Assembly: GCA_951406725.2 (NCBI GenBank)
Contig: OX597838.1
Coordinates: 38,626,001 to 38,690,000, forward strand
Direction of reading: 5' to 3'
Source of the DNA: Octopus vulgaris
Taxonomy: Eukaryota
DNA length: 64,000 nt
Part shown: in pieces, positions 7,335-63,140 of the stretch
How positions within the stretch are numbered: position 1 is the stretch's first letter
How the letters are laid out: every line of letters begins with the position of its first letter
Notes under the pieces: generated by a model
Databases searched by the model: none
Told to the model about the DNA's origin: nothing
What the model saw: only the letters and a program-made list of their open reading frames with translations
Program-made: the position numbers and the translations under genes

Positions 7335-8070
7335 TAGCACACCGGGCGAAATGCTTAGCGGTATTTCGTCTGCCGTTACGGTCTGAGTTCAAATTCCGCC
7401 GAAGTCGACTTTGCCTTTGACCCCTTCGGGATCGATTAAATAAGTACCAGTTACGCACTGGGGTAGATGTAATAGACTTAATCCGTGTGTCTGTCTTTGT
7501 TTGTCCTCTCTGTGTTTAGCCCCTTGTGGGTAGTAAAGAAATAGGTATTTCGTCTGCCGCTACGTTCTGAGTTCAAATTCCGCCGAGGTCGACTTTGCCT
7601 TTCACCCATTCGGGGTCGATTAAATAAATACCAGTTACGCACTGGGGTCGATGTAATAGACTTAATCCGTTTGTCTGTCTTTGTTTGTCCTCTCAGTGTT
7701 TAGCCCCTCGTAGGTTGTAAAGAAATAGGCCTTTCGTCTGCCGCTACGTTCTGAGTTCAAATTCCGCCGAGGTCGACTTTGCCTTTCATCCTTTCGGGGT
7801 CGATAAATAAATACCAGTTACGCACTGGGGTCGATGTAATAGACTTAATCCGTGTGTCTGTCTTTGTTTGTCCTCTCTGTGTTTAGCCCCTTGTGGGTAG
7901 TAAAGAAATAGGTATTTCGTCTGCCGCTACGTTCTGAGTTCAAATTCCGCCGAGGTCGACTTTGCCTTTCATCCTTTCGGGGTCGATTAAATGAGTACCA
8001 GTTACGCACTGGAGTCGATATAATCAACTTACCCCTCCCCTAAAAATTGCTGCCGTCGTTGCAAAATTTG
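7335..8070 (+). mobile_element. SINE family B tetramer (~184-bp period)
   Basis: Units restart at 7360, 7544, 7728 and 7911. B box GAGTTCAAATTCC and central domain GTCGACTTTGCCTTTCATCCTTTCGGGGTCGAT.AAATAAGTACC (resembles Meta-type SINE domains; unverified). Confidence 0.9.
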
Positions 8071-18702: not shown

Positions 18703-19088
18703 AGGCGGTGAGCTGGCACAGTCGTTAGCACGCCGGGTGAAATGCTTAGCGGTATTTCGTCTGCCGCTACGTTCTGAGATCAAATTCCACCGAGGTCGAC
18801 TTTGACTTTCTTCCTTTCGGGGTCGATAAATTAAGTACCAGTTACGCACTGGGGTCGATATAATCTGTCCTTGTTTGTCCCTTGTGCGTTTAGCCCCTTG
18901 TGGGTAGTAAAGAAATATGTATTTCGTCTGCCGCTACGTTCTGAGATCAAATTCCGCCGAGGTCGACTTTGCCTTTCATCCTTTCAGGGTCGATTAAATA
19001 AGTACCAGTTACGTACTGGGGCCCATATAATCGACTTAATCCGTTTGTCCTCTTTGTGTTTAGTCCCTTGTGTGTAGTAAAGAAATAG
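18703..19088 (+). mobile_element. SINE family B dimer
   Basis: Junction at ~18918. Confidence 0.85.
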
Positions 19089-20873: not shown

Positions 20874-21071
20874 TGTGTATGTTTGTGTGTCTGTGTTTGT
20901 CCCCCTAGCATTGCTTGACAACCGATGCTGGTTTGTTTATGTCCCCGTTACTTAACGGTTCGGCAAAAGAGACCGATAGAATAAGTACTGGGCTTACAAA
21001 AGAATAAGTCCCGGGGTCGAGTTGCTCGATTAAATGACTGAAACAAGTAAAAGAGTAAAAGAGTAAAGAGT
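20636..21071 (+). mobile_element. SINE family A inserted in mariner
   Basis: Full copy with a duplicated 5' end. Confidence 0.88.
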
Positions 21072-21084
21072 ATACCTGCTCCGA

Positions 21085-21500
21085 GGCCTACACAACGTTT
21101 TCAAAAACTTTTCAGCGTTCTTGACACAATCAAGGAGATCTTGTGTAACTGAAACCCGAGTGGCTTTTTGGTCAGCTGAAAGCACTTTTGGCACAAACTT
21201 GGCAGTCACGTGTCTCATACCCAAATCTTGAGTGATAATGGATTGAACCGAACCGTAACTATTCAACACATCCTCTAATAACTCACGGATGGTGATCTGA
21301 CGATTTCCCCTCACAGCTGCACGCACATCTGCAATGTTTTTCTCAGTCCTGCTGGTTGTATGTCTCCCAGGATGTTCGTCACTATGGACTTTTTTCGACC
21401 ATCTTGGAAACGTCTAAACCACGGGTCCACTTGTGTGCGTATCATACACTCCCCTCCATACTCTTTCTGCAAGTTTGTGTAGGCCTCTGAGCAAGTAGCG
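21085..21500 (-). pseudogene. Mariner transposase N-terminal HTH fragment
   Basis: AAVRGNRQITIRELLEDVLNSYGSVQSIITQDLGMRHVTAKFVPKVLSADQK contains the mariner WVPHEL-like motif FVPKVL. It is truncated. Confidence 0.8.
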
Positions 21501-21834
21501 CCTTGACAACTTTCTCTGTCATGATCAATGTGACGATCACACGTTACACACGTTACTTCGAAGCACAGCTGTGAACAGCAGAAGTGAGCTAGAATGTTAA
21601 TACTTAGTGCGCATGCAGAGCAAACGTCAAGGTCAATCTGTTCTAAGCGGCTTTAGTCTGCGTACTTTAGTTTCGTTACTATGGCAACAGTCCGGATGCT
21701 TATTGATCAGACTTCGCATATACTCGTGTGTGTGTGTATATATGTATGTATGTGTGTGTGTGTGTATATATATACATATATATGCAAATATATATATATG
21801 TGTGTGTGTGTGTGTATGTGTGTGCATGTATAAT

Positions 21835-35085: not shown

Positions 35086-35852
<767 letters not shown>

Positions 35853-47734: not shown

Positions 47735-48300
47735 GTACTTGCTTGTCTGTCCGTCCTTGTAGACGATATATTTCTTTACTACCCACAAGGGGCTAAACAC
47801 AGAGGGGACAAACAAGGACAGACAAAGGGATTTAGTCGATTACATCGACCCCAGTGCGTAACTGGTACTTAATTTATTGACCCCGAAAGGATGAAAGGCA
47901 AAGTCGACCTCGGCGGAATTTGAACGGCTACGCATTTCGTCAGGCGTGCTAACGTTTCTGCCAGCTCGCCGTCCTTGTAGACGATAAGCAAGGCCATCAC
48001 ATATGAGAGAAGAGGATGAGACACGATGTGTCCAGCTGTGGCTGATCAGTCCGATGCGTGCTAGGAAGGCCCTGCCGCAGGTCAGGAATTTGATGGTTTG
48101 CTGGAACTAAATGCGAGAGGCTGCCTCTGCACAGTTCGCGTTTCTTTTGCGCCCCTGCAATCATGTTCTGTTCGTAGGAGCTGGAACCTCTGTTGGTGCA
48201 GCTTCGTCAGGCATGCAGGGCGGCCTTGCACATGCGTTTTCCAGGTGTCGGGGTTGATTTCAGTGTACGTTGTGGCTTGTCATCAATAATTCAATGTCAT
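47735..48300 (-). mobile_element. Second RTE-clade LINE 3' fragment, interrupted by SINE-B
   Basis: INPDTWK... and FLTCGRAFLARIGLISHSWTHR. The tail matches the 47450 copy. Confidence 0.7.
47768..47972 (-). mobile_element. SINE family B monomer inserted in RTE tail with target duplication
   Basis: ccgtccttgtagacgata is repeated on both sides (47751-47768 and 47969-47986). Confidence 0.85.
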
Positions 48301-50217: not shown

Positions 50218-50554
50218 GTGAGGGGAGTACCTGTAAGATATGGTAAAGCGCTAAAGTGATGGAGCGGAGGAGAAAGGGAGTAATATTATAGTAAATGAGC
50301 GAAGTTTATGGAATGGGTGTGTGAGAGAGACGGAGTGAAAGAGGGGTAGAGAGAGAAAAGAGGAGAAAGAGAGGGGGTAGAGAGAAGGATAGAAAGAGAG
50401 GCAAACAGATAGAGACAGATCGACAGACCAAGAGAGAGAGAGAGAGAGAGAGAGTAGGGGAGAGTGATGGAGAGTGAGATAGAAAAAGGGGAGAGAGACG
50501 CAGATAGCCAGACAGACCGACAGACAGACCGAGAACAGCGAGAAAGAGATAAGG

Positions 50555-50588
<34 letters not shown>

Positions 50589-50636
50589 GTATATTATATA
50601 TATGTATATATATGTATATATATATATATATGTGTA

Positions 50637-51474
50637 TTATAAAATGAGATAGGGGTTGAAAATTCAACCCACCATGGGATAATATATATCCAATATACTG
50701 CTAGATAGGTACCCAACAAAAATTAATACATAGATGTTAGAAATTGTCAAGCAATCAGTTCATCTATTGTATTAAATGGGTAAGGGTAATAATATTACCG
50801 TAAATTAATACTACAAAATTAGAGAATGGAGAAACATACTTAAATCAATAAAGCATCAACTATCCGATGATACTCAATCCATACTTTAATACACCATTAC
50901 ATAGGAGTAAAGGCAATATATAAAATGAAATGAGATATACAGTAATAGTAAAAGTAAAAGTAAAAGTAAAAAGATAAAGAGATATAAGTAAAAAATTACA
51001 AATACAATATGCAAATAAATCAAAACTGACAGCTGTTTCGGCAGTGAGGACAGTCATACCTCATTTAACCTATAAGCCATAAAGGCAGGTATAAATGAGG
51101 CATTAACAAAGATGCCCCACGGCCTCTTCAGAGAATTAAATTAAATTTGTTATAATAGTGAAAAATATTATATAATCATATACATATAAATATAAAAATA
51201 TAAAAAAGTAAAATATAAAAACTTATACATCATAATGCTACACTTGTATAATATAATACATATTTGTACAAAAAGGAAGGTAACCAGAACAAAATAAAAC
51301 AAAATATATAACAGTGTATATATAATATTAATAAGTACCGATATCATACATATTTAGCTAATAGTTTTTTTATAAAAAAAGGGGCTAACACATATGGAGA
51401 TGAAAAATAATAATAATTAAATCCGTGGTACAGTTCATAAAATTCTAAAGCTATAAAAGTTAATAAAAATTACT

Positions 51475-51514
<40 letters not shown>

Positions 51515-53249
51515 GTAATAATAATAAAAAATAATAAAAATAGATACAGTTAAGTTATCACCAAGTCCATCCTTCCAAGATCGAAATAACTATGAGTTAA
51601 GAAATGCTGACCACTAGGTAAAGAAAATTTAGATTAATTCGATTGGCTATTGGTTTGAAATTTAAATCACAAAAGAAAATTATACGGTTGGTTAGTCAGG
51701 GAACGCCAATATTCACACACGCATCTACAGATCAATCGCACATACACACATAGTTATATGTATATACATACACTTGTACATATACATAATCATAAGCAAC
51801 AACTAACACTTAGATAAACAAATAGGGAAGCAACCATGCTAACACTAAGTCCTTCAAAATTATAACTGAGCCTCAATAACAAAAAAAGAACCATCCATGC
51901 ATTCTATAAAATATTTAATTAAGATATAAATGTAATTTTAAATATCAGTATGTTACTAATTCAGATAATTATTTCATGGGTAACTTAAAATTTGTAACAC
52001 CGGTTTGTTGCAGAGTAAACATACGGTTGTTAGATTTATCGTAAGTTTGTTATGATTTAAAGTACGCTAAATTATAAAATATAAAATATAAAATATATTA
52101 ATTTAGATATTATAAATAAGTCACTTATTAACTTAATAAATATAGTGCCAAAATATATCAGTTTAGGCAATAAAAAATAGAGGGGGAAGTATTAATGTAA
52201 ACGCTTATGAGAACATCACAGAAATTTTAAATAAATTTTATATTATAAAGACTTAATATGAAAAGAGATAAAATAAATAAAAAGGAGTAAATACGAAGGA
52301 ATAAATACGGTTATACACATAATTATAAGTACAAACTAGTATATATGTATTCATATATTATTAAAATAAATAAAAATAAATGATAGATATGTATGTATAA
52401 AACTACACCAGTATAAGTAAATAAGTAAAGAATAAATAGGTAACAAATTAAATGACTTGATATGTATGTAAACATCCACACTTAAATAGGCAAATAAATA
52501 AATAAATAGAAGACTAGATGCAAATATTGATAATATTACAATAAAATGGGAAATAAATAAAAATAAATAAAGTGAATATATATATTTTATTTTATATTGT
52601 TGAAAGTAAATATGTATGGAAGGATAGTTTAAAGTACAGATCCAGAGGACTATAGATATAAACTAAATATATGAGGCTGGTAACAATTATAAAGCAAAAT
52701 GCATGTAAATGAGAAAATGAAAAAAATGAAAAAGGTTTATCAGTGAATAACATAAGATACAAATTAAGGTGAGTACAAAAAGACCAAATATATAATAAAA
52801 ACCTTCCAAATCAGCACATACAAAAAACCCATAATCTCAACCTAAACCCACCAAACTCACAAAAGGCTCTCATATATTACATATTATACAATATCATTAC
52901 ATTATCCAGAGCTAGGTATCTAACCAAGATATACATATATACTTTGCAATATACTATGCAATATTGGAAAACTTCAAAAATCACACATTACAAGGCAAAT
53001 AACAAAATGAATATGTTATTTTATGTCATATTGCATTTCTCTTAAAAAAAACAAACAAAAACCCACATACAAAAACCAAGAAACCAATAATACTAGACAC
53101 ATCCAATTAGTTATTATACAAATGTAGCTATAAAAATTATAAAATTATGAAATTTATAAAATGTATACTTTAGAATTATAGAAGACCACAGGTATATTTA
53201 GTTAAAGAAGGGAATTAAAAAATTGATAATAGTGGAAGTGCTAAGTTCT
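50637..53249 (-). repeat. 3' pseudo-LTR (~2.61 kb, very AT-rich)
   Basis: Direct repeat of 56231-58844. By eye only one T indel (T7 vs T8) and one G/A substitution differ. Confidence 0.95.
51022..51135 (-). ncRNA. Type I hammerhead ribozyme with extended stem II (pLTR copy 1)
   Basis: Minus strand reads CTGAAGA-GGCCGTGGGG...TGCCTCATTTA/TAAATGAGGTA...CCTCACTGCC-GAAA-CAGCTG-TC. Stem III is palindromic and the cleavage triplet is GUC. Stem I is weak. Confidence 0.8.
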
Positions 53250-54582
53250 ATTTGAATCTAGAAAAGGTGAACGGTAGCCTATGAATACAAAAGAAGCTTT
53301 TCTCATTAATGTTATTAATAATTTGCCGACCCGCTTTAATAATGAAGAAAATTTCATTAATACATAGAGAGCATTTTTTATTTTTTCCATTATACACAGG
53401 TGCTGAAGTTAGTATTTTCCAGTTTAATCTAAAATCTAAGTTCTTACTTTTAAGTTCCCAAATATATGCACTTAGCCCTGTAGAGTACATTCTATTTTTA
53501 TTCCTAAAAGTATATCTATGATAATTCCATCTTTGTTTTATGCTATTCATAGTTGCCCCGATATACACTCTACTACTCAATTGTGTATCTACAGTGCATT
53601 GGTAAACTACCTCCTTCCTGAGGCATTGATTACCAAATACACATTTATTTTTATTTCTGCAATTACAAAGATTAACAGAATGAGGAAATCTAAGATTGGA
53701 CACCACCCCTGTACTACTATTCACATTATAAGTGTTACAATTGTTATCATCATCCAAACCCAAAATCAACGAATGAGTTAATTCCACATTATCGGCTATA
53801 TTCCTATCACTAGTACTAGTATTGGTAGTAGTGGTATGATCTAATACATTTATATTATCTCTGACAGGTATGGTGCACTCATTATTAGTAAGGAGGTTGC
53901 TCCCATTTGTTCCAAGAAAATTTCTATTCCTATTATTAATGAAGAGGGGCAAGTTTTCCTGGTCTAAATTCAATTTTCTATCCTTATAGAAGTGATCTAG
54001 TTTCTTGTTATTAAAAGAGGAGATGATGGTGGCTAGATTATGAGTAATGCTATATCCCACTCTAACAGTACCGTTGTTAATTAAAGGACTAAATTTATTC
54101 CTATCCTTACCAAAATGCCTAAAAATAATATTATGCAAAGCTCTCACTATGTTTGTTTTAATCTGCATTGCATACGGGATAATCAACCAAAGAGTATCCT
54201 TATCAGAATTAGGATTGCCTATAGAATTAATGTTATTTGTAAAAATCCTATTCGTAGACCAACTCATAGGATTACTATTCTTACCACTGTCATTGTTATG
54301 TCTATCTATATCAATATTACCATGGTTATTGCGCAAGTAAACTTTACCATTATCATGTCTACCATAAGTTTTAATTCGTATATTATTATTAATATTACTA
54401 CTACTACTCGTATGTTTAGATCTATTTGAGCTACCGTTCACCTTTCCAAGGTTAACGTCACTTCTACATTTATTATAGGTGTTATCATATATTCTGTTTT
54501 TACTATTCTTATGTATATTGTTGATTATCCTAAATCTATTTGTGTTGTTCTTGATAGTTCTACCTCCATTAGGGGGTTCCCC
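53248..54582 (-). CDS. PLE RT thumb/linker + GIY-YIG endonuclease (C-terminal part of the same ORF, -1 frame)
   Basis: This frame is open from 54582 (upstream of the annotated GTG) to TAG at 53248-53250. Motifs: CNCRNKNKCVFGNQCL zinc knuckle, VVYQ...VYIG, KQRWNYH, LSAYIWELK, CSLCINE, terminal CIH. Confidence 0.9.
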   Translation of the reverse strand, partial: GEPPNGGRTIKNNTNRFRIINNIHKNSKNRIYDNTYNKCRSDVNLGKVNGSSNRSKHTSSSSNINNNIRIKTYGRHDNGKVYLRNNHGNIDIDRHNNDSGKNSNPMSWSTNRIFTNNINSIGNPNSDKDTLWLIIPYAMQIKTNIVRALHNIIFRHFGKDRNKFSPLINNGTVRVGYSITHNLATIISSFNNKKLDHFYKDRKLNLDQENLPLFINNRNRNFLGTNGSNLLTNNECTIPVRDNINVLDHTTTTNTSTSDRNIADNVELTHSLILGLDDDNNCNTYNVNSSTGVVSNLRFPHSVNLCNCRNKNKCVFGNQCLRKEVVYQCTVDTQLSSRVYIGATMNSIKQRWNYHRYTFRNKNRMYSTGLSAYIWELKSKNLDFRLNWKILTSAPVYNGKNKKCSLCINEIFFIIKAGRQIINNINEKSFFCIHRLPFTFSRFK

Positions 54583-56090
54583 TTAGGTATAAACCAAATC
54601 TTACTTTTATATCCTGCCTTAAGTAATGCTGCATTGTATCTATCACAGTGTTTGTTAAAAATTTCCTCGTTTGAGGATAAACTAGAAATTCTTTGACTAA
54701 TGCTACGCACTAGTGCATTTTTAATTTGAGGGGGGTGATTACTAGAACGGTTAATGTATATTAGGTTAGAATTAGGTTTAATATAGGGTTCATGTAAACC
54801 ATTAGTAATGTTACAATTAACATCTAAATAATTAGCAGAATAATTTTCACTTTCAATGATAATGGATAAGCCGAAGCTTTTAAAAAATTTGTTTATTCTT
54901 TTTTTCAGAAGATCTAATCTCCTATTTGATGTATTCCTAACACAAAATAAGGCGTCATCCCTGTATAATCCGCCTTTTAATTCAGGGAATTCCCTACTAA
55001 AGTTATCCAATAGATACATCCCAACTAGATCAGTCACCTCCGCTGAGTCCGGCGATCCCATTGTGATATCGAACAAGTTGGGTGTGTCCTTTCTAGCCCA
55101 AAGTTTATTATCAAACTCTATTAAAGTTTTCCTGGCTGTTAGTATAACCTTAATCTCCCCCATACTTAATTTAGTGTGTTTTCTAGCAAAAATTAAGGAC
55201 TTATTTAATATAATAGGGTTAATTGAAGTGTAATAATTCTGTATATCGAATTGTATAAATTTATTTCTATTATAGCTAAAGTTGTTACTGTCACAGACCT
55301 TAATGGCAGAAAACCAATCCAAAGCACCCTGAGTATTCTTCCAAAGGTTTAGTTTGATTTTATTGCGGATGGTGGGTAGATATTTATCTAGAATGAGTTT
55401 ACTTAGTCTGCCTAAGTCAGATTTAGTGGGGCAAATTAATCTGACCTGTGTGTTTCCAAGAAAATTCTCTTTATGATCCTTTAGTGTAATTCTCGGTCTG
55501 GATGGGGTGTAGGGTTCCGTTTTTTCTTCTAGGTAGTAGTCAAATATGATTTCTCTGATCTCCAGGTTCAGCTTTCTAAGTGTACTAGAAGGTACTACTT
55601 TGTATTTCTTGGTTATTTCCTTGTGAAGAAGATCATGATATGCAGTAATGTCAATGTTGTAGATGTTGTTAGTTTTGTCAGAATGTGTTAGAATGCCACT
55701 CTTACCTTTGAGAGTTCTAATTAAGTCTTTCAATTCTCTTTGGTGCGGGTTATATCTTAAAGGATGATTTCTAAATTTTATGTTTTTTACAGTCTCCCAT
55801 AGTTCTTGTTCAAAATTGTCTAGATGTATATTTGGTGGAGGAGACTTTCTAGATTTAAATGTAGTGCTTGTTAGTTTTAATATTTCTTCATAGGTGCTTC
55901 CAATTCCATTACGGATCGTTTCTCCAGTGTGTTGTTGGTTTATTTTACTATTATAGTTCTCATGGTGGAAAATCCTCCATCTGATCCTATGGATGAATTC
56001 ATTCATTCTATAAATTAGTTCTTTAGTGTAATGGTCTTTGGTAGGGATAGGTACATCCTTCATTGATGAATTGATCAGTATTTTCTCCAT
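54525..56090 (-). CDS. PLE reverse transcriptase (N-terminal part of a frameshifted ORF)
   Basis: First ATG is at 56090. Motifs SMKDVPIP, IHRIRW, DKTNNIY, ITLKDHKENF...RLICPTKSDLG, FDIQNYYTSI, MGSPDSAEVTDLVG, GLYRDDAL, YLDV, YINRSSNHPP are typical of PLE/Naiad RT. Confidence 0.93.
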   Translation of the reverse strand: MEKILINSSMKDVPIPTKDHYTKELIYRMNEFIHRIRWRIFHHENYNSKINQQHTGETIRNGIGSTYEEILKLTSTTFKSRKSPPPNIHLDNFEQELWETVKNIKFRNHPLRYNPHQRELKDLIRTLKGKSGILTHSDKTNNIYNIDITAYHDLLHKEITKKYKVVPSSTLRKLNLEIREIIFDYYLEEKTEPYTPSRPRITLKDHKENFLGNTQVRLICPTKSDLGRLSKLILDKYLPTIRNKIKLNLWKNTQGALDWFSAIKVCDSNNFSYNRNKFIQFDIQNYYTSINPIILNKSLIFARKHTKLSMGEIKVILTARKTLIEFDNKLWARKDTPNLFDITMGSPDSAEVTDLVGMYLLDNFSREFPELKGGLYRDDALFCVRNTSNRRLDLLKKRINKFFKSFGLSIIIESENYSANYLDVNCNITNGLHEPYIKPNSNLIYINRSSNHPPQIKNALVRSISQRISSLSSNEEIFNKHCDRYNAALLKAGYKSKIWFIPKGNPLMEVELSRTTQIDLG

Positions 56091-56230
56091 TCTTCTAGCA
56101 GTAATGATCAAAGGAACAAATATACTACACTAGGGTGTATTCACATGCACTATTAATATTTAAATCAATAAATGGATGCTTATATTACACCAGTATGAGC
56201 AATTCAGGTTCCTCAAAAGATAAATTTAGG

Positions 56231-57069
56231 TTATAAAATGAGATAGGGGTTGAAAATTCAACCCACCATGGGATAATATATATCCAATATACTGCTAGAT
56301 AGGTACCCAACAAAAATTAATACATAGATGTTAGAAATTGTCAAGCAATCAGTTCATCTATTGTATTAAATGGGTAAGGGTAATAATATTACCGTAAATT
56401 AATACTACAAAATTAGAGAATGGAGAAACATACTTAAATCAATAAAGCATCAACTATCCGATGATACTCAATCCATACTTTAATACACCATTACATAGGA
56501 GTAAAGGCAATATATAAAATGAAATGAGATATACAGTAATAGTAAAAGTAAAAGTAAAAGTAAAAAGATAAAGAGATATAAGTAAAAAATTACAAATACA
56601 ATATGCAAATAAATCAAAACTGACAGCTGTTTCGGCAGTGAGGACAGTCATACCTCATTTAACCTATAAGCCATAAAGGCAGGTATAAATGAGGCATTAA
56701 CAAAGATGCCCCACGGCCTCTTCAGAGAATTAAATTAAATTTGTTATAATAGTGAAAAATATTATATAATCATATACATATAAATATAAAAATATAAAAA
56801 AGTAAAATATAAAAACTTATACATCATAATGCTACACTTGTATAATATAATACATATTTGTACAAAAAGGAAGGTAACCAGAACAAAATAAAACAAAATA
56901 TATAACAGTGTATATATAATATTAATAAGTACCGATATCATACATATTTAGCTAATAGTTTTTTTTATAAAAAAAGGGGCTAACACATATGGAGATGAAA
57001 AATAATAATAATTAAATCCGTGGTACAGTTCATAAAATTCTAAAGCTATAAAAGTTAATAAAAATTACT

Positions 57070-57109
<40 letters not shown>

Positions 57110-58844
57110 GTAATAATAATAAAAAATAATAAAAATAGATACAGTTAAGTTATCACCAAGTCCATCCTTCCAAGATCGAAATAACTATGAGTTAAGAAAT
57201 GCTGACCACTAGGTAAAGAAAATTTAGATTAATTCGATTGGCTATTGGTTTGAAATTTAAATCACAAAAGAAAATTATACGGTTGGTTAGTCAGGGAACG
57301 CCAATATTCACACACGCATCTACAGATCAATCGCACATACACACATAGTTATATGTATATACATACACTTGTACATATACATAATCATAAGCAACAACTA
57401 ACACTTAGATAAACAAATAGGGAAGCAACCATGCTAACACTAAGTCCTTCAAAATTATAACTGAGCCTCAATAACAAAAAAAGAACCATCCATGCATTCT
57501 ATAAAATATTTAATTAAGATATAAATGTAATTTTAAATATCAGTATGTTACTAATTCAGATAATTATTTCATGGGTAACTTAAAATTTGTAACACCGGTT
57601 TGTTGCAGAGTAAACATACGGTTGTTAGATTTATCGTAAGTTTGTTATGATTTAAAGTACGCTAAATTATAAAATATAAAATATAAAATATATTAATTTA
57701 GATATTATAAATAAGTCACTTATTAACTTAATAAATATAGTGCCAAAATATATCAGTTTAGGCAATAAAAAATAGAGGGGGAAGTATTAATGTAAACGCT
57801 TATGAGAACATCACAGAAATTTTAAATAAATTTTATATTATAAAGACTTAATATGAAAAGAGATAAAATAAATAAAAAGGAATAAATACGAAGGAATAAA
57901 TACGGTTATACACATAATTATAAGTACAAACTAGTATATATGTATTCATATATTATTAAAATAAATAAAAATAAATGATAGATATGTATGTATAAAACTA
58001 CACCAGTATAAGTAAATAAGTAAAGAATAAATAGGTAACAAATTAAATGACTTGATATGTATGTAAACATCCACACTTAAATAGGCAAATAAATAAATAA
58101 ATAGAAGACTAGATGCAAATATTGATAATATTACAATAAAATGGGAAATAAATAAAAATAAATAAAGTGAATATATATATTTTATTTTATATTGTTGAAA
58201 GTAAATATGTATGGAAGGATAGTTTAAAGTACAGATCCAGAGGACTATAGATATAAACTAAATATATGAGGCTGGTAACAATTATAAAGCAAAATGCATG
58301 TAAATGAGAAAATGAAAAAAATGAAAAAGGTTTATCAGTGAATAACATAAGATACAAATTAAGGTGAGTACAAAAAGACCAAATATATAATAAAAACCTT
58401 CCAAATCAGCACATACAAAAAACCCATAATCTCAACCTAAACCCACCAAACTCACAAAAGGCTCTCATATATTACATATTATACAATATCATTACATTAT
58501 CCAGAGCTAGGTATCTAACCAAGATATACATATATACTTTGCAATATACTATGCAATATTGGAAAACTTCAAAAATCACACATTACAAGGCAAATAACAA
58601 AATGAATATGTTATTTTATGTCATATTGCATTTCTCTTAAAAAAAACAAACAAAAACCCACATACAAAAACCAAGAAACCAATAATACTAGACACATCCA
58701 ATTAGTTATTATACAAATGTAGCTATAAAAATTATAAAATTATGAAATTTATAAAATGTATACTTTAGAATTATAGAAGACCACAGGTATATTTAGTTAA
58801 AGAAGGGAATTAAAAAATTGATAATAGTGGAAGTGCTAAGTTCT
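56231..58844 (-). repeat. 5' pseudo-LTR (tandem copy)
   Basis: Starts ttataaaatgagataggggttg like 50637 and ends agtggaagtgctaagttct like 53249. Offset is 5594-5595 bp. Confidence 0.95.
56616..56729 (-). ncRNA. Type I hammerhead ribozyme (pLTR copy 2)
   Basis: Identical to 51022-51135. Confidence 0.8.
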
Positions 58845-58916
58845 GGATTGAGTATCATCGGATAGTTGATGCTTTATTGATTTAAGTATGTTTCTCCATT
58901 CTCTAATTTTGTAGTA
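58845..58916 (+). repeat. Inverted pLTR fragment at PLE 5' end
   Basis: Exact reverse complement of 50809-50880 / 56403-56474. Confidence 0.92.
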
Positions 58917-58920
58917 TATA

Positions 58921-58986
<66 letters not shown>

Positions 58987-59481
58987 TATACGTATATAGA
59001 GAGAGAGCAAGGAGGTGAGAATTAAAGTAGAGATGGCGGAGTTGAGAGGGGGGCGTTGGGTTTGGGTATGGAACGAAGACAAAGATGGAGTAGCGGTGAG
59101 ATGGATTTCATGATTGATGGAGTATCGAGTATGGGAGAAGAAGACGGGGACGGCAGTGAGGGCGGGGGAGGGGGGAGGAGGGGGAAGAGGGGGAAGGGGA
59201 GGGGGAGGGGAGGAGGAGGAGGAGAAAGAAGAAGAAGAAGAAGAACAACAACAACAACAACAACAACGACAATAAGAGAAGGAAGGCGATATGGAAGTTG
59301 GATTAGAAAAGCAGAGGAATGAATGGAAGAGAAAAGATGGATGGACCGTAATAATTATGTATATACGTATATATGTGTTTGTGTGTGTGTGTGTGTGTGT
59401 ATGTATGTTTATAAATATATGTATATACGCATGCGTATATATGTATGTATGTATATGTATGGATAGATGAACGTATGCATG

Positions 59482-61992: not shown

Positions 61993-63140
61993 AAGGCGGC
62001 GAGCTGGCAGACTCGTTAGCACGCCGGGCGAAATGCTTAGCAGTATTTCGTCTGCCGCTACTTTCTGAGTTCAAATTCCGCCGAGGTCGACATTGCCTTT
62101 CATCCTTTCGGGGTCGATTAAATAAGTACCAGTTAAGCACTGGGGTCGATATAATCGACTTAATCCGTTTGTCTGTCCTTGTTTGTTCCCTCTGTGTTTA
62201 GCCCCTTGTTGGTAGTAAAGAAATAGGTATTTCGTCTGTCTTTATGTTTTCAGTTCATATCCCACCGAGGTCGACTTTGCCTTTCATCCTTTTGGGATCG
62301 ATAAATTAAATACCAGTCGATCTAATCGACTGCCCCCCTCCCCAATAATTTCGGGCTTTGTGCCTACAGTAGAATAAGAATATTTAAGGTGGCGAGCTAG
62401 CAAAAACGTTAACACGGCGGACGAAATACTTAGCGGCATTTCGTATGTCTTTGCGTTCTGAGTTCAAATTCTGCCGAAGTCGACTTTGCCTTTCATCCTT
62501 TCGGGCTCGATAAATTAAGTACCAGTTGCGTACTGGAGTCGATCTAATTGACAGGTCCCATCCCCTAAAATTTCGGGCCTTGTGCCTAGGATAGAAAAGA
62601 AATCCTGCCGAGGTCGACATTGCCTTTCATAATTTCGAGGTCGACAAATTAAGTACCAATTGCGAACTAGGTTCGATCTAATCGACTGGACCTTTCCACC
62701 AAAATTTCGGGCCTTGTGCCAAGAATAGAAAAGAATATTTAAGGCGGTGAGCCGGCAGAAACGTTAGCGCGCCGGGCGAAATCCTTAGTAGTATTTCGTC
62801 TGTCTTTGCTTTCTGTGTTCAAATTCCGCCGAGGTCGACTTTGCCTTTCGTCCTTTCGAAGTCGTCAAATTAAGAACCAATTGCGTACTGATCTAAATTT
62901 CTTTCCAAAAATTTCAGGCCTTGTGCCTAGAGCAAAAAATAGTCGAAGCACGCTGGACAAAATGCTTAGCGGTATTTCGTCCATCTTTACGTTCGGAATT
63001 CAAATTACGTTGTGGTAGACTTTACCTTTTCATCCTTCGAGGTGGATGATATAAGTACCAGCTGCCTACTGGGGTTGATGTAGTCGACTATCCCTCCTCC
63101 CTCCCCCAAAAATTTCAGGCCTTGCGCTTATTGTCGAAAG
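61993..63140 (+). mobile_element. Cluster of ~6 head-to-tail SINE family B units
   Basis: Heads at 61993, 62387 and 62742, with partial units at 62225, 62600 and 62945. Confidence 0.88.

Follow-up and report, generated by a model that had tools for sequence, protein, structure and literature searches.

The 64,000-nt stretch of the Octopus vulgaris genome analysed here (NCBI GenBank assembly GCA_951406725.2, contig OX597838.1, positions 38,626,001 to 38,690,000 of the forward strand; hereafter the window, with positions counted from its first nucleotide) carries a Penelope-like element (PLE) between 50637 and 58917, which encodes a reverse transcriptase (RT) and a GIY-YIG endonuclease (EN) on the minus strand and lies in (TA)n. 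The features of the locus are listed below (ORF, open reading frame; UTR, untranslated region; pLTR, pseudo-long terminal repeat).

50555..50636, no strand: left (TA)n target tract
50637..53249, minus: downstream repeat, the element's 3' UTR, 2,611 nt past the stop codon (self-BLAST; contig X2 #25 of a public run enters ~500 nt of it)
50637..50807, minus: 3'-terminal 171 nt, from the element end to the start of the inverted piece, a candidate long 'tail' between two putative RT start sites
51028..51131, minus: type I hammerhead (motif scan, fold)
53248..53682, minus: CxCx5C linker motif and C-terminal GIY-YIG endonuclease with CxxC and CxH (stop codon 53250-53248)
53263..53278, minus: arm 1 of a 16-nt perfect inverted match (19 bp including G.U ends) to 54430-54445
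53683..54582, minus: thumb-to-endonuclease linker with two Asn-rich inserts
54430..54445, minus: arm 2 of the 16-nt inverted match, within the first Asn-rich insert
54570..56090, minus: PLE reverse transcriptase and thumb (RWR, SDKT, KDHK, YRDD)
54572..54576, plus: G5 run, site of the frame shift in the window; one extra G in contigs of other runs
56091..56230, minus: unique 5' UTR, 140 nt
56231..58844, minus: upstream repeat (pLTR), a 5'-truncated tandem copy starting exactly at the stop codon
56622..56725, minus: hammerhead, second copy
58844..58917, plus: 74-bp inverted piece, a copy of 50808-50881, joined via 1 nt of microhomology
58918..58998, no strand: right (TA)n target tract

Self-BLAST of 50400-59200 aligned 50637-53249 with 56231-58844 as a direct repeat of 2,614 columns at 99.92% identity. 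The two copies differ by one substitution (52287 G / 57882 A) and by a 1-nt indel in a T run (51364 / 56959), which agrees with the original prediction, made from the sequence alone, of two ~2.6-kb direct repeats with about 2 differences. The inverted piece that it reported is present as well, at 74 instead of 72 bp (58844-58917, the reverse complement of 50808-50881, 100%, E 2.6e-34), and the (TA)n tracts that it placed on both sides abut the element at both ends. A target-site duplication is not readable within these tracts, and no further piece of this element was found in the 64-kb window. The repeat, rightly described beforehand as almost all AT-rich non-coding DNA, has a G+C content of 24% and just four ATG-started frames (51-66 aa); a frame scan of the 3' UTR found no coding capacity (longest ATG frame 66 aa). 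The unit comprises the 140-nt 5' UTR, the ORF and the 2,611-nt 3' UTR, 5,594 bp in all, and the direct part of the insertion amounts to 1.47 head-to-tail units. The repeat coincides exactly with the 3' UTR, and the upstream copy starts at the stop codon (its boundary lies within 1-2 nt). A partial tandem (pLTR) with an optional inverted copy is a trait of EN-containing PLEs. Because a pLTR is a 5'-truncated second copy (PMC8969392), its length is no fixed trait unless the boundary is common to other copies; the 'giant pLTR' of the original prediction keeps its 2.6-kb length, but is better read as a giant 3' UTR that was duplicated as a 5'-truncated tandem copy.

The RT lies in the minus-strand frame 56090-54525, which is opened by an ATG at 56090, and the linker and GIY-YIG domain in 54582-53248, the two frames being offset by one base at the G5 run near 54571. 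Read through the shift with an X, the frame has 947 codons. The 'structurally complete' element with an RT and GIY-YIG ORF between the repeats thus stands as far as domains and layout are concerned, and not in the continuity of its frame, which is shifted in the assembly. The contigs of four public runs (X1, X2, X13 and X18) were compared with window positions 53180-58600. An extra G at the G-run was present in at least one contig of all four runs, and it accounted for the whole depth at this site in X1 (43.2/43.2), X2 (30.9/30.9) and X13 (112.5/112.5). P0001 (Octopus sinensis), the best protein match, is identical over 195 RT residues, has 10 differences in the linker and reads through the G-run site, and the single ORF typical of the Hydra clade of PLEs, shifted in the window, is in frame in this protein and in the X1, X2 and X13 contigs. 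From these comparisons the frame of the family is considered intact, and the shift in this copy likely stems from a homopolymer error or from a mutation private to it. Alternatively, the G5 form might be genuine and functional, with a -1 ribosomal frameshift linking RT to endonuclease, and the small share of the X18 depth that shows the extra G would fit this, but we regard it as highly improbable, since the in-frame form makes up all depth at the G-run in the three other runs, P0001 and P0108 (O. bimaculoides) read through it, and RT and EN lie in one frame in 44 relatives.

The protein starts with MEKIL...RWR (RWR at 37), followed by SDKT at 137, CNCRNKNKC at 809 and CSLC...CIH from 907, and it contains the motifs KDHKENF, RLICP, YRDD and CNCRNKNKC-x5-C. 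Pfam returned no family for either frame at E 0.1, nor for the sub-domains at E 1, and a PDB sequence search gave chance matches only. For the RT model (pLDDT 91.9), Foldseek ranks 1-7 are telomerases (telomerase reverse transcriptases, TERTs; E 2e-10 to 1e-9), with other RTs close behind. Foldseek alone found no match to the EN model (pLDDT 94.9) at E<=0.001; its best structural match is I-TevI (Z 9.9, root-mean-square deviation 2.2, 89 residues aligned), followed by T4 EndoII (Z 7.7) and UvrC (Z 6.5). The GIY-YIG residues Y27, Y40, G42, R51, H55 and E110 are conserved, and a single Cys stands between VVY and YIG, the equivalents of GIY and YIG. The Asn-rich linker inserts measure ~133 and ~109 aa (23% and 20% Asn), and the linker segments 143 and 174 aa, compared with medians of 27 (81 proteins) and 74 (71 proteins); Asn-rich stretches occur at the same places in the O. 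bimaculoides proteins P0108 and P0184. Longer homologues (778-2,220 aa and 913-2,605 aa) were not found, which is weak evidence. At NCBI, P0001, P0004 and P0108 are labelled 'GATA zinc finger domain-containing protein 14-like' or 'DDB_G0282133'; these proteins are mis-annotated pieces of transposons, and their names apparently come from the Asn-rich linker.

The original prediction had placed the element in the Naiad clade. According to Craig et al. 2021 (PMC8557442), the endonuclease is N-terminal in Naiads, which carry DKA, CCHH and an insertion in the fingers domain (IFD) and are without a canonical hammerhead; the Hydra clade has a C-terminal endonuclease, RWK, DKG changed to DKT, CxCx5C, no CCHH, CxxC/CxH, hammerheads and (TA)n targets. 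In the octopus element the EN follows the RT, and RWR (a variant also seen in the sixth Hydra protein of the Craig et al. supplement), SDKT, CNCRNKNKC, CSLC...CIH and the (TA)n insertion are present, with no CCHH. The RT3-RT4 spacing of 63 equals the median of the relatives (range 61-67; measurable in 100 of the 120) and indicates no IFD, and the hammerhead has the canonical core, stem II and stem III, with a weak stem I, a stem II well beyond published lengths and a predicted activity. The 5,594-bp unit departs from 'generally short (<3 kb)', which in the same paper is a tendency of the Hydra clade and not diagnostic (PMC8557442). The KDHKENF/RLIxP, YRDD and CxC-x5-C-x5-C motifs that had suggested a Naiad are all there, yet they occur in Hydra-clade sequences: in the supplement, 15/15 KDHK and 15/15 YRDD matches are Hydra-clade rows (long rows are cut at 400 letters, and Naiad RTs are largely outside this comparison). 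Among 120 protein matches, KDHK was found in 118, DK[TS] in 93, DKA in 1 and DKG in none. In a FastTree phylogeny of 107 RT rows (the window and 106 of the 120 search matches, short ones dropped), the element groups with sequences of Octopus sinensis, O. bimaculoides (P0108) and Argonauta (P0004) and with three Logan proteins (Shimodaira-Hasegawa-like support 100). By these sequence traits the element is assigned to the Hydra clade and not to Naiad. We give a Naiad practically no credence: the (TA)n target and the listing of Naiads for Octopus, the host group, are all that speaks for it, whereas the C-terminal position of the endonuclease leads to its rejection, DKT in place of DKA, the missing CCHH, the hammerhead and the RT3-RT4 spacing point the same way, and Naiad_Ovul starts with its endonuclease, unlike the start of this protein.

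Hammerheads, which had been presumed for the pLTRs, were found by the motif scan on the minus strand, one per repeat (51131->51028 and 56725->56622). Each has CUGAAGA, an 85-nt stem II rod, GAAA and a palindromic 4-bp stem III in this order (CUGAAGA...GAAAC-AG/CU-GUC), with the predicted cut after the last C (51028 in the downstream repeat). Stem II folds at -38 kcal/mol (z -6.4), and a core with a 4-bp stem III occurred in 4 of 200 shuffles of the unit; Rfam returned no hammerhead match, just microsatellite-driven microRNA matches. For hammerheads with a palindromic stem III, action as dimers has been suggested, as has copying of longer-than-unit stretches from a circular template (PMC4209133). 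The 3' end (50637-50900) is structured (fold z -3.2) and has a terminal GGGUUG/CAACCC hairpin. Loose ends in X1 and X2 at 56246-56264 (and 50652-50670) come from other repeats, in which the GGGGTT(G)/(C)AACCC stem is retained while the loops differ, so that related families seem to share the structure of the 3'-terminal hairpin. The loose ends at 56259-56260 were considered as a 30-40-bp PLE tail, a candidate that was rejected because they belong to these related repeats, whose hairpins differ in the loop but not in the stem.

Craig et al. list 27 Hydra families of 1,080-3,045 bp, many of them incomplete (PMC8557442). The element is about twice the described size of the clade, and its non-coding tail is ~10x longer than in relatives. 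We surveyed 77 metagenomic loci of relatives, 22 without and 55 with a recognisable EN end; 35 of the latter were counted, 2 were left out (stem I <3 pairs) and no hammerhead was found in 18. The distance from stop codon to hammerhead is 2,116 nt, compared with 47-304 nt (median 131) in the 35 relatives, and the stem II region 85 nt, compared with 10-25 nt; the frame of 947 codons exceeds all of 44 RT and EN frames of relatives (median 720, maximum 803 codons). Downstream sequence of at least 2.2 kb is available in 10 loci only, of which 8 have a close hammerhead and 2 have none. Since several of the loci also nearly duplicate one another, long-tailed relatives could be hidden in this sample. 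The long tail belongs to the family because contig X2 #25 (3,512 nt) spans both ORF junctions (repeat/5' UTR and stop/3' UTR), running from 31 letters inside the upstream repeat through an in-frame ORF across the G-run into ~500 nt of the 3' UTR. The contigs of each run cover 29-30 of 30 bins, and the 3' UTR is covered by all four runs. The 3'-terminal 550 nt have a greater contig depth than the ORF, which gives no copy number. Joints that skip 312, 651 and 1,157 nt in the 3' UTR (56704-58517) occur in one contig each, with short sides, and possibly represent internally deleted non-autonomous derivatives.

At a rate of 0.0036 substitutions per million years (PMC13282606), the one substitution in 2,613 bp of repeat corresponds to ~0.05 million years (upper 95% bound 0.3 million years). 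ORF contigs differ from the window at 3/2,199 letters in X1 (0.14%) and 7/3,083 in X2 (0.23%). Four ORF substitutions of the window are absent from nearly all depth of the four runs, and the two repeats have variants in common that are missing from most of the depth of the other runs, as a single template would predict. If the four ORF changes had arisen after insertion, the repeats should differ at ~7 sites (1 substitution observed; P about 0.005); therefore these changes likely come from the donor, and both repeats from one template. The insertion is likely recent, although homogenisation or assembly collapse would look alike. The second 2.6-kb copy might itself be an assembly artefact, a later local duplication or a product of gene conversion, in which case the repeat identity would be uninformative on age. 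Homopolymer-type discrepancies in the window (G-run, T-run), the absence of a long read across the locus and the mismatch between four ORF differences and one repeat substitution all lean towards this explanation; we nevertheless think it improbable, because two direct copies with an adjacent inverted piece in (TA)n are the published PLE pattern, the same numbers are expected if the four changes are donor-derived, and both ORF junctions are present in an independent contig. The young PLE that was originally predicted, with its partial tandem and inverted piece in (TA)n, is supported in this form and has near-identical copies in other runs.

The locus very probably holds a Hydra-type PLE with a 5,594-bp unit that was inserted, likely recently and by its own RT and endonuclease, into (TA)n as 1.47 head-to-tail units and a 74-bp inverted piece. 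The protein of the PLE Poseidon is reported to nick AT-rich DNA on both strands, to extend both of them and to start at two internal RNA sites bounding a 'tail' (PMC11167929). By extension from this biochemistry, the GIY-YIG domain of the octopus element would nick both strands of the AT-rich target (PMC11167929). The left target end would prime at the TTATA site (50637/56231), and the first arm would be copied from a longer-than-unit RNA (tandem read-through or circle) for 1.47 units, i.e., one unit and a second 3' UTR, up to a stop at the ORF end. The right end would prime at the ATA site 171 nt further in and copy 74 nt, and the second arm would then be joined head-to-head to the first via 1 nt of microhomology. 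With one longer-than-unit template, the 2.6-kb repeat would thus be the 3' UTR copied twice.

Several observations weigh against this interpretation. Hammerhead cleavage is not needed by Poseidon in vitro (PMC11167929); stem I is weak here (2 pairs, then U.U), and self-cleavage is predicted only. The RT tree covers search matches only and has no named PLE reference clades. X18 shows the extra G at 5.6 of 3,533 depth only, so that some real copies may have the G5 form. The 8.3 kb are not crossed in full by any read or contig, and the contig comparison (53180-58600) ends before the inverted junction and the flanks. Finally, random truncation does not explain that the first arm ends exactly on the stop codon.

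This last point bears on whether the repeat is instead a fixed part of the family, set by a transcription start or an RT stop at the ORF end, with the family moving as repeat-ORF-repeat. The 16-nt inverted match (53263-53278 / 54430-54445) could form a long-range duplex that acts as a block 13 nt from the boundary. A boundary within 1-2 nt of the stop codon would suit such a block, as would a duplex of -35 kcal/mol from a match whose length (at least 16 nt) was reached in 2 of 300 triplet shuffles. We consider a fixed repeat unlikely, since a single copy is at hand and the RT must already have passed the duplex once in the full unit; the self-repeats of the 77 relatives range from about 40 to 2,656 bp, and many of them are contig-end overlaps (two loci, L017 and L057, have direct repeats of 2.5-2.7 kb that may be tandems or assembler loops). 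Were it fixed, the explanation of the boundary alone would change. A more specific form, to which we give somewhat less weight still, is that in a cephalopod Hydra lineage the whole 2.6-kb 3' UTR became a fixed terminal repeat, where a long-range RNA duplex, having arisen within the Asn-rich insert, sets the edge at the stop codon, and where a second RT start lies 171 nt from the first. If true, the family would move as a defined 8.2-kb repeat-ORF-repeat and would show how PLE pseudo-LTR boundaries are programmed. With the 3' UTR copied twice from one template, which we prefer, the position of the stop-codon boundary near the inverted match may be chance in one copy.

The element shares with the Hydra clade the domain order, RW[KR], DKT, KDHK, YRDD, CxCx5C, the lack of CCHH, CxxC and CxH, the 3'-end hammerhead and the (TA)n target (PMC8557442), and with Naiads the PLE RT, the GIY-YIG domain, the (TA)n target and the presence in Octopus (PMC8557442). 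Hydra-1_Obim of O. bimaculoides is much shorter (2,507 bp and 709 aa, PMC8557442, versus 5,594 bp, 947 codons and a 2.6-kb 3' UTR) and is a different family, as the N-termini differ by eye. The Penelopes of Adineta vaga (Arkhipova et al. 2013, PMC3846280) belong to another PLE lineage with ~200-bp pLTRs, but Pen1, Pen2a and Pen3/4 likewise have two direct repeats and an adjacent inverted piece, and Asn-rich in-frame inserts occur between RT and EN. Pen1 also has a long spacer (0.9-1.5 kb) before its 3' pLTR, which is unique host DNA (PMC3846280), whereas in the octopus element the 3' UTR is found in both repeats and in contigs of all four runs. An RT with C-terminal GIY-YIG, a hammerhead and an AT-rich target are likewise found in Poseidon of Anolis carolinensis (Frangieh et al. 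2024, PMC11167929); its two start sites fall within the beginning of the ORF, with a 30-40-nt tail between them, whereas those proposed here, from one copy, would be 171 nt apart and non-coding. The literature found by our search contained no Hydra-clade biochemistry.

In O. vulgaris, 336 recent Penelope-like insertions of 31 families occupy 1.83 Mb (Bonar et al. 2026, PMC13282606), i.e., ~5.4 kb per insertion, and young multi-kb PLEs are therefore ordinary in octopus. The available text of that paper shows no clade-level assignment of PLEs ('Hydra' has 0 occurrences), and no description of this octopus family was found in the literature searched, although the O. vulgaris repeat library (PMC13282606) may hold it. 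The find leaves the nature of PLEs unchanged, and young PLEs are common in octopus; it doubles the described size range of the Hydra clade and repeats the Asn-rich inserts of rotifer Penelopes in another lineage. For the open question of how PLEs form partial tandems and inverted arms, this young family offers near-identical copies, a long asymmetric unit and sharp junctions, from which the points where RT starts and stops could be mapped with genome data alone.

The metagenomic collections surveyed contain Hydra-type PLEs in abundance (at least 469 stretches), and in six metagenomic contigs (L004, L020, L021, L046, L051 and L077) an EN end upstream of the RT match reflects stacked Hydra-type elements. 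None of the listed sequence holders is recorded as RNA, and expression is therefore not claimed. Over 53180-58600, the runs guessed to be RNA show an excess of A>G on the element strand (T>C over A>G on the plus strand: 26 versus 11 in X1 and 17 versus 9 in X2; pooled P 0.005), compared with 33 T>C versus 34 A>G in the runs guessed to be DNA; this is a weak, uncontrolled hint of A-to-I editing, to which alleles and subfamilies could contribute.

Elsewhere in the window, tandem arrays with 184-bp and 167-bp units lie at 7360-8031 and 18752-19087, which look similar to the common octopus short interspersed element (SINE). The frame 35224-35532 (plus) may represent the restriction-like endonuclease end of an R4/Dong-type long interspersed element (LINE), and fragments at 21030-21652 (minus) the N-terminus of a mariner transposase. 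A dispersed repeat at 47769-47925 recurs in opposite orientation (84-94% alike) at 62069-62225, 62462-62552, 62600-62687 and 62817-62890, with its copies clustered at 62-63 kb.

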